Virus record (IMG/VR): IMGVR_UViG_2675903289_000016
Length of the DNA: 4,481 bases
Direction: 5' to 3' (one strand)
From: a virus
Lineage: Duplodnaviria > Heunggongvirae > Uroviricota > Caudoviricetes
The notes below the pieces were generated by a model, which saw nothing but the letters and a program-made list of their open reading frames with translations, ran no database searches and was not told where the DNA came from. How positions within the stretch are numbered: the first letter of the stretch is position 1; each line of letters opens with the position of its first letter. Both the position numbers and the translations under genes were made by a program. This document shows, one piece after another, positions 12 to 4,481 of the stretch.

Positions 12-198
12 TATCTTTCTCCTTATTCAGTCTTCTGCGGCATTCGGCACAGTCATCAGGGCTTTCAAATGTATCCGGCTCGCGATTATGAGCCAGATAT
101 AACCACCGCCCACATATACTGATATTTTCACCTGTTTTAAAAAAATGATGCTTCTTAGCCATCAATGGCCGCGCCCATCCAGCGGGTAGACTATTCAT
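1..198 (-). CDS. Small Cys/His-containing hypothetical protein (65 aa)
   Basis: ATG at 196-198 with a GGAGGA RBS 8 nt upstream, lying inside the 3' end of the preceding gene; stop TAG at 1-3. Has C29, C50, C53 and H17/H18/H37 (HH…C…H…CxxC-like spacing). Confidence 0.5.
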   Translation of the reverse strand: MNSLPAGWARPLMAKKHHFFKTGENISICGRWLYLAHNREPDTFESPDDCAECRRRLNKEKDNGQ

Positions 199-565
199 TA
201 GCTTTATCCTCCATGCTGGACAGAATCATATGTATTAATGTCGGGCGTGGAGATATACGCATTTCATTAAGCGTCTGAAGGGCAGCAACAGCAGCCATTT
301 TATCGGTGCCTCTGGCAATTTCTGCAAGAGAATGCACAATCCATAACGGACTTAACGCTACGGCTGAATCCAGAATCATGTCATCCATAATAATTTCTGG
401 CACATCCCGTTTGTCACATTCTTTATCCATAAAAGAAACGATTTTTTCCGCATCTTCCGGTTTCATACCTCCGGCGATAAGAATTTTACGATATTCATAA
501 GACGTTCTTAATTCAATGCTCATATTCATCTCCTGTAACTCTGACAAGGACGTGATTTTTCTCAT
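191..565 (-). CDS. Hypothetical protein (124 aa; alternative start gives 110 aa)
   Basis: ATG at 563-565 is coupled to the upstream stop. An internal ATG at 521-523 has a stronger AGGAG RBS 6 nt upstream. Stop TAG at 191-193. About 40% GC by hand count. No HTH or catalytic motif recognised. Confidence 0.5.
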   Translation of the reverse strand: MRKITSLSELQEMNMSIELRTSYEYRKILIAGGMKPEDAEKIVSFMDKECDKRDVPEIIMDDMILDSAVALSPLWIVHSLAEIARGTDKMAAVAALQTLNEMRISPRPTLIHMILSSMEDKANE

Positions 566-756
566 TTACGCCTNTTACGCCTCCCGGAAATACGAATGTA
601 TATACCGATGAGAAAATCCATAATAAACAGGAAGAGCGACATCCTGATAAAGAACCAAATGTCAGGCATAATGGACAGGTTTCCTGTAATCGCAAATATA
701 AAACCAGTCCCCCACACTGGAACGATAATTGCGAAAAATACAAGTCTCTTTATCAT
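562..756 (-). CDS. Small membrane protein (64 aa), two predicted transmembrane helices and a polybasic C-terminal tail
   Basis: ATG at 754-756 with a GGGAG RBS. Two hydrophobic stretches (LVFFAIIVPVWGTGFIFAI and IWFFIRMSLFLFIMDFLIGIYI) followed by GRR(K/N)RRK. The ambiguous base at 574 falls in this tail. Stop TGA at 562-564 overlaps the next ATG. Confidence 0.5.
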   Translation of the reverse strand: MIKRLVFFAIIVPVWGTGFIFAITGNLSIMPDIWFFIRMSLFLFIMDFLIGIYIRISGRRXRRK

Positions 757-1304
757 GGCGTTAACTCCCGTAATACAGCGTCCTCGGCGGTCCGTCGACG
801 GTAATAAACAGCGTGAGCAGAATGTTCAGATATGCCAAACTTTTCGCCAATTTCCCGGAATGACAGACGGCGAGGGTAATCGGAATCCCGTAGTGCACGT
901 ATAAGACGAACATCCTCATCAGATATACGTGTGCCGGGGCGTAACTCACCGCACTTTGTTAATCCGGCACCAATCATTCCTGCGCGGCACCTGACAGAGT
1001 CTTTATTACGTCCGAGATAATCCCCCATTTGCTGGCAGGTCATTGTCCGGGCATTTTTTCGGATAAATTTATCTTCATCAGGTGTAAATCGCGGTCGTTT
1101 ATATTTCAGCAACTCCGGGTATGTACTGCGCAATACGCCAGTCCGGTTATATACGGCCCAGACACTTCTTTTTATTCTGGCGGCAATATCCTTAACCGGG
1201 GTGGAGGAATAAAGCGCAATCAGCAGCGCATCTTCTTCAGGTGTCCACGGGCGGACATGAGCAGGTGCACGACCTTTTCGCCCCATGGGTTGTAATTTCA
1301 TCAT
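753..1304 (-). CDS. Putative DNA-binding regulator (183 aa) with three HTH-like repeats; C-terminal repeat resembles the Mor/C activator HTH
   Basis: Starts ATG ATG (1302-1304, 1299-1301) after GGGGGTGA. Three repeats begin WTPEEDALLIALY, FTPDEDKFIRKNA and ISDEDVRLIRALR. The last continues RRLSFREIGEKFGISEHSAHAVYYRRR, which matches the Mu Mor pattern LIRDLR…SELTTRYGVTFNTVYKAIRRMRR as I recall it. Stop TGA at 753-755 overlaps the next ATG. Confidence 0.55.
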   Translation of the reverse strand: MMKLQPMGRKGRAPAHVRPWTPEEDALLIALYSSTPVKDIAARIKRSVWAVYNRTGVLRSTYPELLKYKRPRFTPDEDKFIRKNARTMTCQQMGDYLGRNKDSVRCRAGMIGAGLTKCGELRPGTRISDEDVRLIRALRDSDYPRRLSFREIGEKFGISEHSAHAVYYRRRTAEDAVLRELTP

Positions 1305-1307
1305 GCA

Positions 1308-1823
1308 TCACCCCCTGACTCGCTTTTCAGCAGCATAAAACTCATCAGACAGAATTTCGGTCATTTTCTGTTTTGCGGGTTTTACGCCACACTCAAGGTA
1401 AATCACATCGTCAACGCAGAACCACTTCACAGGGCCAAACAGGATTGCCGAGAAATCAATGCCCAGCCAGAACAACAGGGCATCGGTCCTAGCATACGTG
1501 ACGGGCGAATATTCACGCCACAGACTGTTAAGTTCGTCAGAGGCAGCGCGCAGGGCTTTGGGAATACGAGATGTGCGCGGCGTGCAGCTCCAGCCATTCG
1601 ACGCAGTTGGTTTTCGCCATAAGTCGCGATGAAAAGGATATTTGTCATCCGTAAAACGCAGCCCCTTAAAACAAAAACCACTGATACTGAATTCAAATAC
1701 CGACCGGCACTCAACATTCAGCACGGCCTCAAGGCGTTTTGCCTCATCCTTAACTTTCTGGCAGTCCTGCTGGTATTTTTGCCACGCAGCCAGCGCGGAA
1801 GGGTTTGATGTTTTAAAGAACAT
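1308..1823 (-). CDS. Hypothetical protein (171 aa); sits where GemA lies relative to Mor in Mu, but the sequence is not recognised
   Basis: ATG at 1821-1823 with a strong GGAGGTG RBS 5 nt upstream; stop TGA at 1308-1310, 3 nt before the next start. About 55% GC. Confidence 0.6.
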   Translation of the reverse strand: MFFKTSNPSALAAWQKYQQDCQKVKDEAKRLEAVLNVECRSVFEFSISGFCFKGLRFTDDKYPFHRDLWRKPTASNGWSCTPRTSRIPKALRAASDELNSLWREYSPVTYARTDALLFWLGIDFSAILFGPVKWFCVDDVIYLECGVKPAKQKMTEILSDEFYAAEKRVRG

Positions 1824-2102
1824 TACGCCACCTCCGCAGATATCCCGGCAGGCGCTGCTGTCCGGTCAACAATCAGGTAGCGCAGAACATGTTCAGTGAT
1901 ATTCCAGCCGCTTAAACCGCAGATAATGACGCCCAGGCGTATGTCGATATACGCCATCACAAACTGGGGCACGCCTTCTTTCATGGCCTGCTCATCAACT
2001 TCAGCCACCACATAAACGGTTTCACAGGTCAGAACGCCCTGAGCAAATTCCCACGCCATCGACGGAATATCATGCCCCTCAATCCATGGCAGGGATTTTC
2101 TG
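1823..2102 (-). CDS. 3' part of a hypothetical protein whose 5' end lies inside the N gap
   Basis: The called ORF starts at the ATG at 2057-2059, but the same frame stays open upstream (…EKSLPWIEGHDIPS-MAWEF…) right up to the N boundary at 2102. Stop TAA at 1823-1825 overlaps the next gene's ATG (TAATG). Confidence 0.5.
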
Positions 2103-2594
2103 NNNNNNNNNNNNNNNNNNNNNNNNNNNNNNNNNNNNNNNNNNNNNNNNNNNNNNNNNNNNNNNNNNNNNNNNNNNNNNNNNNNNNNNNNNNNNNNNNN
2201 NNNNNNNNNNNNNNNNNNNNNNNNNNNNNNNNNNNNNNNNNNNNNNNNNNNNNNNNNNNNNNNNNNNNNNNNNNNNNNNNNNNNNNNNNNNNNNNNNNNN
2301 NNNNNNNNNNNNNNNNNNNNNNNNNNNNNNNNNNNNNNNNNNNNNNNNNNNNNNNNNNNNNNNNNNNNNNNNNNNNNNNNNNNNNNNNNNNNNNNNNNNN
2401 NNNNNNNNNNNNNNNNNNNNNNNNNNNNNNNNNNNNNNNNNNNNNNNNNNNNNNNNNNNNNNNNNNNNNNNNNNNNNNNNNNNNNNNNNNNNNNNNNNNN
2501 NNNNNNNNNNNNNNNNNNNNNNNNNNNNNNNNNNNNNNNNNNNNNNNNNNNNNNNNNNNNNNNNNNNNNNNNNNNNNNNNNNNNNNNNNNNNNN
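2103..2594. other. Run of 492 N (assembly gap or masked sequence)
   Basis: Uninterrupted n from 2103 to 2594. The length is a multiple of 3. The six-frame ORFs 2072-2671 and 2086-2643 exist only because N translates to X. Confidence 0.99.
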
Positions 2595-2600
2595 GCGGTG

Positions 2601-3131
2601 TTATTTATTCAGTCCGGCGTCCTGTTCAAAAGGCTCGACATAAAAACTTTCAGCGCCTTTATTCACCTTGATACCGGCAATGCCTTTCACAGCATCCGGC
2701 TCCGCCAGGACGGCTTCCTTGTTCACTTCCTCTTTCGTGCGGATGAAACGCTCAAGCCCCATACGGCGCAGCATTTCAATCACACCTTCCACATCACGGC
2801 TGACGCTGCATGATGGCGTTCCCAGCCGCCATGACACCGTTCCGGTGGTCAGATTGGCTGTTTTGGTTTTGCCGCCGTTCGTCAGCTCATCACGGTTGGT
2901 TTTGCACCAGTCCTGAATCCCTTTAAAAAGCACTTTGATTTGCTTTTTAAGATTTTCAATCTGCGGCGTATAACGGGCGGTGATTTCTGCCACTTCGTCA
3001 TTCATCGCCGTTTCCAGGCGCAGCGCCTCTCGCTGAATATCTCCCAGGGTGCGGATATCACGGCTGACTTCTTCCCGGGTCTGCGGTGCCGCCTCGGCTG
3101 CGGCCTTTAATTTTGTAATGCGTTTAGCCAT
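2601..3131 (-). CDS. gam: Mu-type Gam, host-nuclease inhibitor / dsDNA-end-binding protein (176 aa)
   Basis: ATG at 3129-3131 with an AAGGA RBS about 10 nt upstream; stop TAA at 2601-2603. The translation carries the motifs I recall from phage Mu Gam: N-terminal MAK, NRDELTNGGKxKTANLxTGxVSWR, RFxRTKxExNKEAxLxEP and PFEQxAG near the C-terminus, at the same length (Mu Gam is about 174 aa). Recalled, not searched. Confidence 0.85.
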   Translation of the reverse strand: MAKRITKLKAAAEAAPQTREEVSRDIRTLGDIQREALRLETAMNDEVAEITARYTPQIENLKKQIKVLFKGIQDWCKTNRDELTNGGKTKTANLTTGTVSWRLGTPSCSVSRDVEGVIEMLRRMGLERFIRTKEEVNKEAVLAEPDAVKGIAGIKVNKGAESFYVEPFEQDAGLNK

Positions 3132-3142
3132 TTTGTTTTTCC

Positions 3143-3436
3143 TTATTGCAGTGTGCCTGATGCTTTATGCACGCGGTGGCGTTTAATGATGGCATCCGCT
3201 CCAAAAGACTGTGCAGATGCCTGAAATTCCGCTGAGAGAAACTGAATAATTGCAGGACTGTGATACTGGAGAATACTTGCATAAACGTCACAGAGTGACG
3301 TCGGCCTGTTATCCGTATCACGTTCTGTTTTCACATCCACTCCAATCTTTTCATGCACTTCAACACAGTCATTGCCTGCCAACTTTTCGTCATGCGAAAC
3401 ATGATTAAATTCAAAAATAACGCGTACTTTGCTCAT
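3143..3436 (-). CDS. Small hypothetical protein (97 aa from the MSKV start), paralog B of a tandem pair
   Basis: The longest ORF reaches 3463, but the ATG at 3434-3436 has a GGGG(T) RBS, lies 4 nt after the upstream stop, and gives MSKVRVIFEF, matching paralog A. Stop TAA at 3143-3145. About 44% GC. Confidence 0.6.
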   Translation of the reverse strand: MSKVRVIFEFNHVSHDEKLAGNDCVEVHEKIGVDVKTERDTDNRPTSLCDVYASILQYHSPAIIQFLSAEFQASAQSFGADAIIKRHRVHKASGTLQ

Positions 3437-3440
3437 GGAA

Positions 3441-3713
3441 TTACCCCTGTTGATTAAATTCATTACCGTTAATAACCCCGGAAGCCATGCCTCTGTCTTT
3501 CATGAATGCACTGGCTTTCATTGCCACAAACTCTGCGAAGTTTCTGCTTTCTGCCAGCATAACCACCCCAAAAATCATGGCGGGTCCATTATCTTTCTTC
3601 TTTATTCCGGTTGAACGTATATCCAGACTTACCCCTCTGTGCGTGCTGCCATCAGAGTTTTTGCAGATAACATCTTCCTTGTATTCGAAAATAATGCGTA
3701 CGACTTTACTCAT
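3441..3713 (-). CDS. Small hypothetical protein (90 aa), paralog A of a tandem pair
   Basis: ATG at 3711-3713 preceded by GAGGA; stop TAA at 3441-3443. N-terminus MSKVVRIIFEY and C-terminal AEFVAMKASAF segment match the downstream gene. About 43% GC. Confidence 0.6.
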   Translation of the reverse strand: MSKVVRIIFEYKEDVICKNSDGSTHRGVSLDIRSTGIKKKDNGPAMIFGVVMLAESRNFAEFVAMKASAFMKDRGMASGVINGNEFNQQG

Positions 3714-3991
3714 CCTCTGGTCCTCGTTCTGTTTGGATAACTGACCCGGCGTCTAACCTCACGGCAGAACCGAATCATGGCATTAAAGGCTTCTTCCTCC
3801 GTCACCGCTTCCGGTATCCCCGGAACCAGTAACTGCTCCTGTTCATCACGTCCATGACGCGCCATAACCTCAATCACATGCCGTACCGTGGCAGGCTTTC
3901 CGGCAACTATCGGCAATGCACCTTCCGGCAGGACGTAACCAAACTCAATAAGACCACTCGACCACGCCCATGCAATGAGATTTTTTTTCAC
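3710..3991 (-). CDS. Hypothetical protein (93 aa), GTG start
   Basis: Minus-strand ORF whose first codon is GTG (plus 3989-3991 = cac), preceded by GGGAGGTG. Codons 2-4 form an A8 run (plus T8 at 3981-3988). Stop TGA at 3710-3712 overlaps the next start (ATGA). About 53% GC. Confidence 0.5.
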   Translation of the reverse strand: MKKNLIAWAWSSGLIEFGYVLPEGALPIVAGKPATVRHVIEVMARHGRDEQEQLLVPGIPEAVTEEEAFNAMIRFCREVRRRVSYPNRTRTRG

Positions 3992-3992
3992 C

Positions 3993-4247
3993 TCACACCT
4001 CCCAGTAAACCGTGCAGCCGCTGATGCGGGTGGCCTTCACACGGCGGCGCAGGCCGTTGGTCTGTATGGTGATTTCAATTTCACCGGTTCCCTGCACGTT
4101 GCCTACCGGCGGCGTGGTTTTCAGTGCAAAACGTTGCGGATAGCGCTTACTGCGTTCCAGTACCGCACCGGCAAGTTCGGTCAGACGGCGCGCGCTGTTC
4201 AGGGAGTCGAATAAATTCATTTTGTTACCGCAGGATTGCATATTCAT
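3993..4247 (-). CDS. Hypothetical protein (about 84 aa; the longest ORF reaches 4259)
   Basis: Minus-strand ORF with stop TGA at 3993-3995. A GAGGTG Shine-Dalgarno sits inside the first codons of the longest ORF, so the start is more likely the ATG at 4245-4247 (or 4239-4241) than 4257-4259. About 55% GC. Confidence 0.5.
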   Translation of the reverse strand: MNMQSCGNKMNLFDSLNSARRLTELAGAVLERSKRYPQRFALKTTPPVGNVQGTGEIEITIQTNGLRRRVKATRISGCTVYWEV

Positions 4248-4259
4248 ATAACACCTCAT

Positions 4260-4481
4260 TTAGCTGACTTGTTTCGCACCAACAGAACGGCATATTCCGC
4301 TGTAAACTTCTGTCGCACCTTCGCGATCAAGTCCGGCAGATATCACCATTCGTGTGCGGTCATTAAATTCAAAAAGTAAATCGCCACATTCTTTATTTTC
4401 GGCCAGTGAAATCACCTTCACGTTATCGAAATTAACCAGGTAAAAGCGTCCGTAAATATCAGGAATATTAAATACCGCCAT
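4260..4481 (-). CDS. Hypothetical small protein (73 aa as drawn); ATG lies exactly at the window edge so the true start may be further upstream
   Basis: Minus-strand ORF from ATG at 4479-4481 to TAA at 4260-4262. AT-rich (about 42% GC by hand count) compared with its downstream neighbour. Contains the exact 14-mer attaaattcaaaaa (4362-4375), also present at 3404-3417, encoding FEFN in both genes. Confidence 0.5.
   Translation of the reverse strand: MAVFNIPDIYGRFYLVNFDNVKVISLAENKECGDLLFEFNDRTRMVISAGLDREGATEVYSGICRSVGAKQVS

Follow-up and report, generated by a model that had tools for sequence, protein, structure and literature searches.

The locus and its closest described relatives

Uneven GC content of accessory genes and modular mosaicism are textbook traits of temperate phages, and both have been reported for relatives of phage Mu (PMC4378225). 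The Mu-like phages of Pseudomonas combine a core with regions of genomic plasticity that lie mostly in the left arm, hold short accessory open reading frames (ORFs) of 34 to 100 codons, and in some cases form valleys in guanine-plus-cytosine (GC) content; no recombinase target was recognized at their borders (PMC4378225). In lambdoid phages, each of the elements known as morons is transcribed independently, from its own promoter to its own terminator; morons are also additions relative to related phages and differ in GC from neighboring genes (PMC3594210). Mu itself has an early region that extends from kil to gemA (Mup05 to Mup16), and Sp18 of Escherichia coli O157:H7 Sakai is, according to the literature, an apparently intact Mu-like prophage (PMC2669165). 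Here, we analyzed a stretch of 4,481 nucleotides (nt) from the virus record IMGVR_UViG_2675903289_000016 (“the window”), along which AT-rich and GC-rich genes alternate. The window is the early accessory operon, from B to gemA, of an Sp18-type Mu-like E. coli prophage. Its AT-rich genes are mostly old, fixed residents (those lettered A, D, and E below) and not recent inserts, for which reason the alternation is an ordinary finding.

Across 2595-4481, the right part of the window, identity to E. coli DLI.5a is 100%; for the left part (1-2100), it is 99.6%. The DLI.5a locus is bordered by genes for a Mu-type transposase and an AAA ATPase (MuB) at one end and for gp16 (GemA), Mor, and lysozyme at the other, and Sp18 has the same flanks; in both loci, the upstream neighbors are thus the Mu-type transposition genes A and B, while gemA (gp16), mor, and the genes for lysis lie downstream. 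Homologs of Mu Gam, gp11, and gp12 lie in between in Mu order. Of 5,426 complete E. coli genomes, 232 carry related sequence, among them that of Sakai, in whose record Sp18 is annotated as “Mu-like phage.” Every long ORF of the window is on the minus strand, tightly packed, and in the direction of transcription the order is A, a Kil-like gene, C, D, E, gam, a run of masked bases (N), a gp11-like gene, a gp12-like gene, H, I, J, and K, with A being the first gene after the transposition gene B. Judged by sequence and position, the window is the counterpart of the semi-essential early region of Mu, from kil to gemA.

The resemblance to Mu comprises the position between B and gemA/mor, the single orientation and tight packing of the genes, and the presence of heterogeneous early genes of lower GC (42 to 55%) as opposed to uniform late genes. 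Shared genes include gam (57% amino acid [aa] identity), gp12 (55% aa identity), gp11, and gemA; only these four are clearly common to both, the first two by tblastn and the last two by family clustering, and all four belong to the GC-richer genes. In contrast, the genes between B and gam are kil, gp6, gp7, gp8, and gp9 in Mu but A, the Kil-like gene, C, D, and E in the window, the two sets being unrelated apart from a weak kil match. Gene H follows gp12 in the window, whereas its Mu relative, gp9, precedes gam, and the GC spread of the window is somewhat wider (39 to 56%). Sp18 is of the same prophage type and gene order, with 89 to 96% nt identity over the window, but has other alleles of D (86%) and H (77%) and an extra gene, ECs_4953, between gam and gp11, which DLI.5a lacks and at which the window is masked. 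A longer version of the ECs_4953 family is annotated as DUF5420 in other relatives, and the gam-gp11 slot holds such an optional DUF5420 gene (543 to 579 nt) in 31 of 43 relatives. With the Pseudomonas Mu-like phages the window shares short accessory ORFs that cluster in the early arm, some at GC valleys, but the host is different and there is no sequence relationship; moreover, low GC was read there as recent acquisition (PMC4378225), whereas the low-GC genes A, D, and E of the window are core and old.

GC content alternates from gene to gene

The computed GC content was 42.1% at 4261-4481, 55.2% at 3991-4260, 52.9% at 3711-3990, 43.0% at 3441-3710, 44.0% at 3141-3440, and 40.3% at 191-560, for segments of 200 to 550 nt that each carry a binomial standard error of 2 to 3.6 points. 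A sequence-only reading of the window had arrived by hand at 42, 55, 53, 43, 44, and 40%, in agreement within 1 point, and had described 753-2060 and gam as GC-richer, for which the computed values were 50.5% and 52.4%. Two AT-rich genes had been left unquoted: 562-756 (39%) and 1-198 (45%). Across the 12 genes, GC was heterogeneous (chi-square = 39.1, 11 degrees of freedom, p = 5e-5; the base-shuffle null averaged 11, with its 99.9th percentile at 33). Pooled GC was 42.3% for an AT-rich class (A, D, E, I, J, and K) and 51.7% for a GC-rich class (kil, C, gam, gp11, gp12, and H), and heterogeneity within each class was not significant (p = 0.90 and 0.53, respectively). H is of the low class at synonymous sites, with a GC of 42% at third codon positions (GC3) despite 49.8% overall. 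Both the chi-square test and the recurrence of the same values, gene for gene, in about 50 related loci show that the gene-by-gene alternation is real.

The AT-rich blocks had also been said to coincide exactly with gene boundaries. Maximum-likelihood change points were placed at 756, 3105, 3740, and 4209, compared with gene borders at 752, 3137, 3711, and 4259, i.e., with offsets of 4 to 50 nt and support intervals of tens to hundreds of nt, and sliding the gene frame by up to 45 nt in either direction hardly altered the chi-square value. The data fit composition at the level of genes but do not resolve it to the base, and “exactly” overstates the match. A circular-shift test of gene borders against composition (p about 0.08) was uninformative because the segments are short and the AT-rich and GC-rich genes form multigene blocks.

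The alternation is embedded in a broader contrast between early and late genes. In Sp18, GC was 56.7 ± 2.2% for late genes versus 47.5 ± 5.7% for early genes, and 270-nt chunks of at most 45% GC made up none of the 74 in the late region versus 50% of those in the early region; the corresponding values for phage Mu were 55.2 ± 1.6% (late) versus 48.6 ± 3.9% (early). Among the E. coli chromosomal flanks sampled, 20% of chunks were at or below 45% GC, and against these the spread in the window is unexceptional; it does, however, exceed the variance of the prophage's own backbone, so that the differences are more than the normal variation of the element. A description of the GC-rich genes as host-like was rejected, since they lie below the prophage's own late-gene GC (57%); the whole early region, beyond its AT-rich genes, is therefore depressed in GC.

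Low-GC genes are mostly old and fixed

Gene families were mapped over 11 annotated E. coli loci and Mu and then over 40 IMG/VR loci, with presence tabulated by slot. Family GC was nearly constant over about 50 loci: 40 to 43% for A, 52 to 59% for Kil, 53 to 55% for C, 43 to 46% for both D and E, 49 to 53% for gam, 52 to 54% for gp11, 35 to 39% for I, 40 to 43% for J, and 42 to 46% for K. Gene A was present in all 47 loci and, by an independent count, in every one of the 233 E. coli records that matched, with identity of ≥99% in 206. D was found in 45 of 47 loci, with E and the Kil-like gene each in 46; D and E together were matched in all 233 E. coli records, with coverage of ≥80% in 227. The GC-rich gene C, in contrast, was present in only 32 of 47 loci, and since those without it retain about 95 nt of its 3′ end, its absence represents deletion. 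Equating AT-rich with insert and GC-rich with backbone, as the sequence-only reading had done, is therefore not supported: A (233/233), D (45/47), and E (46/47) are the conserved genes, while GC-rich C (32/47) is not. Conservation in related phages, which that reading had itself named as refuting, holds for these three of its AT-rich genes.

The I-J-K genes behave differently and form the sole block of the window in a currently active swap slot. Among 29 loci, I was present in 13, K in 15, and J in 19 (in several different contexts), and the full block (1-756) occurred in 107 of the 233 matching E. coli records. The junction between H and gemA was filled in all 29 loci, with I, J, and K varying as alternative cassettes. 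Optional genes P and O of the relatives also lean toward AT (42 to 49% GC), and over 23 families the rarer ones tended to be AT-richer (Spearman rho = 0.58, p = 0.004), which is a tendency and not a rule because the families are not independent of one another.

Low GC in A extends beyond E. coli. A Salmonella prophage with an A of 56% identity retains MuB, A, and Kil in this order (GC of 54, 44, and 57%); for these three genes in Klebsiella oxytoca, the values are 59, 50, and 59%, and A and Kil are separated there by an extra gene (55%). In both, A directly follows MuB and lies 9 to 13 GC points under its neighbors, and Pfam MuB_C and Mu-transpos_C matches were found in the Salmonella and Klebsiella loci. 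The conservation of this high/low/high pattern in Salmonella and K. oxytoca implies that it is old. Within E. coli, alleles of A differ by a synonymous divergence (dS) of 0.71 and those of E by 0.95, in each case with unchanged GC, which is unlike a recent import that drifts toward backbone composition. Purifying selection acts on all genes (ratio of nonsynonymous to synonymous divergence [dN/dS] of 0.06 to 0.34; 0.16 for A).

These observations urge caution, in that low GC alone is a poor clock of phage gene acquisition: no gene of the region is more conserved than A, the most AT-rich one beside MuB, and its low GC has persisted unchanged over a dS of about 0.7, while a GC-rich neighbor comes and goes. 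A, D, and E are uncharacterized, universally kept under purifying selection, and located near the transposition machinery, and they could merit functional interest.

A recombination mosaic of AT-rich and GC-rich genes

The region is a recombination mosaic in which AT-rich and GC-rich genes are both shuffled. Identity to Sp18 at the nt level varied by gene: 99% for A, Kil, and C, 86% for D, 96% for E, 95% for gam, 92% for gp12, 77% for H, 89% for I, and 96% for J and K; other relatives showed different combinations. Mismatch density against Sp18 rises at the C/D border, falls at the D/E border, and shifts inside H near 1200, such that the 14% divergence of the D allele has a sharp onset at both of its gene borders. 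Alleles of H fall into classes of 77% versus 93 to 100% nt identity, with an intragenic breakpoint near 1200. Two classes of E alleles, about 57% identical in aa sequence and both of 43 to 46% GC, are exchanged among otherwise nearly identical prophages. Eight gene orders were observed in the A-to-gam slot and eight in the H-to-gemA slot (29 loci).

The start codon of I overlaps the stop codon of H (ATGA, 753-756), and the alternative cassettes I and Q share both this start point and their first seven bases (ATGATAA; H/Q junctions in the relatives L006, L011, and L012). The ATGA overlap at the stop of H is a precise swap point at a gene border. Mosaic acquisition, as proposed from the sequence alone, thus holds insofar as gene-sized alleles and cassettes have been shuffled with joints at or near gene borders, but AT-richness is no mark of recent insertion.

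Explanations for the alternation

The alternation is probably best explained by an accessory operon of gene families, each with a stable GC of its own, that is reshuffled by recombination and in which low GC is no time stamp of arrival. Such an operon would be polycistronic, running on the minus strand from just after B toward gemA/mor, and would consist of a string of small gene families with different histories that each keep a characteristic GC: about 50 to 56% for gam, gp11, gp12, kil, and C and about 37 to 46% for A, D, E, I, J, and K, compared with about 57% for the late backbone. GC would alternate because families of differing history and composition are strung together. The string would have been built, and would still be reshuffled, via recombination among coresident temperate phages, with joints at or near gene borders (at start/stop overlaps) and occasionally within genes, giving rise to allele swaps as well as cassette swaps. 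Low GC would then be a stable long-term trait of the accessory families and may reflect the AT-leaning equilibrium of genes that are widely exchanged and weakly selected for codon usage.

Several points weigh against this reading. The relatives are nearly all E. coli prophages, many of them near duplicates, so that frequencies of presence do not amount to independent observations. As A served as the query for the 40 IMG/VR loci, its presence in 47 of 47 loci is partly ascertainment. Recombination is something that we infer from patterns. The promoter and terminator scan used below is a crude consensus test. Candidate causes for the low GC itself include AT-biased mutation with weak selection, amino acid content, origin from lower-GC phages or from a common pool of phage genes, and a function at the DNA level.

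A possible but doubtful alternative is that the alternation arises from coding and selection constraints alone, i.e., from amino acid content and from AT-biased mutation on short, weakly expressed accessory genes under little selection for codon usage. The first and second codon positions do show the GC gap between the two classes (+0.08 each), the proportion of FYMINK residues is 32.5% in the AT-rich class versus 23.9% in the GC-rich class, and gene I encodes a hydrophobic, membrane-type peptide. The stability of low GC over a dS of 0.7 to 0.95 is in keeping with such constraints, and the offset of A persists as its absolute GC rises with the K. oxytoca backbone (to 50%, with a GC3 of 59%), as expected of a constant offset, whether selective or mutational. 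However, the gap spans all three codon positions and peaks at the third (+0.13, p = 9e-6), from which it follows that amino acid content is not the sole explanation. Allele shuffling, cassette swaps, and the occurrence of K in lambdoid phages are independent signs of exchange. Constraint is compatible with a reshuffled operon of compositionally stable families as the cause of its low GC and competes with it only with respect to horizontal exchange.

It is improbable that the AT-rich genes entered a GC-richer Mu backbone relatively recently, as moron-like insertions from a source of lower GC. They do lie 10 to 15 points under the late backbone and differ in composition from the genes that flank them (42.3 versus 51.7% GC, p = 5e-5), much as morons are described to diverge in GC from their neighbors (PMC3594210). 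At E ≤ 1e-3, tblastn gave Mu homologs of gam and gp12 but of none of A, D, E, I, J, and K; yet Kil and C, which are GC-rich, likewise lack a clear one. Variable presence of I-J-K among close relatives, the sharing of K between Mu-like and lambdoid prophages, and the AT-richness of rarer families (rho = 0.58) would all suit recent insertion. Against it stand the presence of A in 233 of 233 records and of D and E in 227 of 233 at ≥80% coverage, the synteny of A at lower GC than its neighbors in three genera, the lack of any drift toward backbone GC at a dS of 0.7 to 0.95, and the GC-rich nature of the one dispensable gene, C. For A, D, and E (233/233 records, 45/47 loci, and 46/47 loci), such near-universal presence does not fit a presence/absence polymorphism between adjacent genes, as would be expected of morons.

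Nor did the AT-rich genes appear to be transcription units of their own in the consensus scan of the window: 6 promoter-like sites were counted versus 5.9 expected and 8 terminator-like sites versus 4.6, flanking matches were not above chance, and none on the coding strand bracketed an AT-rich gene. All genes are co-oriented and abut or overlap (by 1 to 12 nt), with spacing of −4 to +12 nt. With no flanking promoter or terminator signals, these genes are not morons in the strict sense. The likeness to lambdoid morons (HK97 gp15 type; PMC3594210) thus consists of the composition contrast, the variability of I, J, and K, and the occurrence of K in unrelated phage types; unlike morons, the window genes are co-oriented and translationally coupled, without predicted promoters or terminators of their own, and A, D, and E are no additions. 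A moron-like origin, as the sequence-only reading had suggested for the AT-rich genes, therefore fails for the putative paralog pair D/E and the edge gene A and applies only loosely to I-J-K. In some relatives, opposite-strand cassettes termed S and V precede gemA, with a GC-rich hairpin and a run of T between the convergent genes (at about 4962-5033 in L006 and about 4465-4530 in L012). The window has no such cassettes, and none of its own genes looks as moron-like as they do.

Only a slim chance is given to a further alternative, namely, that the low GC of A, D, and E is kept by a role at the DNA or RNA level, such as H-NS-type binding tracts, interspersed among kil and gam, or pause/attenuation sites that meter toxic early genes. 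If true, this could explain the high/low/high pattern after MuB across genera and near-saturating synonymous divergence; a xenogeneic-silencing paper that names Sp18 contains only the loss of the prophage in a mutant, with no H-NS data for this region. Chance fluctuation or a hand-counting artifact can practically be dismissed, since short segments (200 to 550 nt, standard error of 2 to 3.6 points) and imprecise change points are outweighed by the chi-square value of 39.1 (p = 5e-5) and by per-family GC values that were replicated in about 50 loci and two other genera.

Genes of the early operon

All genes below are on the minus strand. Gene A (4260-4481; 73 aa; 41.9% GC, GC3 of 36.5%) belongs to phrog_3375 (E = 1e-46). 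Its protein falls into only 50 sequence clusters among 5.8 billion, from E. coli, Salmonella enterica, and K. oxytoca. A scan of genome contigs with protein A gave 191 pattern matches, 0 of which were confirmed by tblastn, and when A and E were searched by tblastn in 50,697 phage genomes, only two Shiga toxin (Stx) phages with an inserted Mu-like phage were matched. In the structure model of A (predicted local distance difference test [pLDDT] score of 76), five strands are combined with a C-terminal helix; the best matches in the PDB were PH-like and Sso7d-like folds at E ≥ 0.1 only, and in BFVD only small uncharacterized phage proteins were matched.

The Kil-like gene (gene B of the window, distinct from the transposition gene; 3993-4259, annotated start at 4247) belongs to phrog_2679, “Kil protein” (E = 8e-46), has 55 to 56% GC with a GC3 of 65%, and gave a weak tblastn match to the C terminus of Mu Kil (E = 0.003). 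Gene C (3710-3991; 93 aa; 52.8% GC) belongs to phrog_1518, whose label would make it a putative host nuclease inhibitor. Decay variants were seen in this part of the operon among relatives: the 3′ remnant in loci that lack C (L007 9386-9461), an in-frame A-C fusion from which kil has been removed in one locus (L055 7001-7201), and an IS66 element between D and E in one (L009 3084-5419).

Genes D (3441-3713; 90 aa; phrog_4107; 42.9% GC) and E (3143-3436; 97 aa; phrog_2230; 43 to 44% GC) lie in tandem and are plausibly distant paralogs. A single BLASTP comparison aligned 76 aa of the two at 22% identity (E = 6e-4), hhalign with shallow family alignments gave a probability of 83% (E = 9e-6), and the two share the N terminus MSKV(V)R(V/I)IFE(F/Y). 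An exact 14-nt repeat, ATTAAATTCAAAAA, occurs in E (3404-3417) and in A (4362-4375) and encodes FEFN in both; the counterpart in D is the related IFEY. Homology of A to D/E, considered because of the FEFN motif and this repeat, found no support by BLASTP, and the A/E repeat may reflect chance or microhomology. Next in order is gam (2601-3131; 52.4% GC), encoding the Mu Gam host-nuclease inhibitor (PF07352, E = 5e-42), with 57% aa identity to Mu Gam by tblastn; it was present in all loci. For A, C, D, E, I, J, and K, searches of Pfam, NCBIfam, and PADLOC were negative, and those of PHROGs returned only families without known function; together with the structure model of A, they gave no functional assignment for A, D, E, I, J, or K. 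A scan of the window against Rfam at the gathering threshold gave 0 matches.

The run of 492 N (2103-2594) extends over the gam-gp11 spacer and into the gp11-like gene, whose 5′ half it masks; the equivalent in DLI.5a is only 395 nt long. The 3′ part of the gp11-like gene (family L; 1823-2102; 53.6% GC) corresponds to the DLI.5a coding sequence 30371-30904, and the gene has 72% nt identity to Mu gp11/gp12 and was present in 43 of 43 loci. It is followed by the gp12-like gene (family G; 1308-1823; phrog_2314, E = 6e-85; 55% aa identity to Mu gp12; 49.6% GC) and by H (753-1304), a putative Myb/helix-turn-helix (HTH)-type regulator that belongs to phrog_323, “transcriptional regulator, D5-like” (E = 2.5e-53), and whose Pfam matches to Myb and HTH_AsnC were weak and below the curated cutoffs.

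Gene I (562-756; 39% GC), predicted to encode a small hydrophobic membrane-type protein, opens the hypervariable slot. Its 3′ end contains a 9-nt tandem duplication, TTACGCCT-N-TTACGCCT, at 566-582, with an ambiguous base at 574; the duplication keeps the frame and adds 3 residues, and DLI.5a is without it (2,091 versus 2,100 nt aligned). Gene J (191-565, annotated start at 523; 40% GC) belongs to phrog_1988 (E = 2e-43). Gene K (1-198; 65 aa; 45% GC) belongs to phrog_2358 and encodes pairs of Cys. A relative of K at 73% protein identity lies in the replication/nin-like region of a lambdoid prophage of EDL933 (L013 4005-4160; 38% GC), and part of K (21-180) gave weak nt matches of about 71% in many more E. 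coli records, several of them O157:H7, with the lambdoid context having been checked in EDL933 only. K is an accessory gene common to Mu-like and lambdoid phages.

The DLI.5a prophage (L001; NZ_CP103972.1, 3504197-3521904) is degraded, though it matches the window exactly: beyond its lysis and DUF2730 genes, it is without head and most tail genes, and a truncated tail gene comes directly next.

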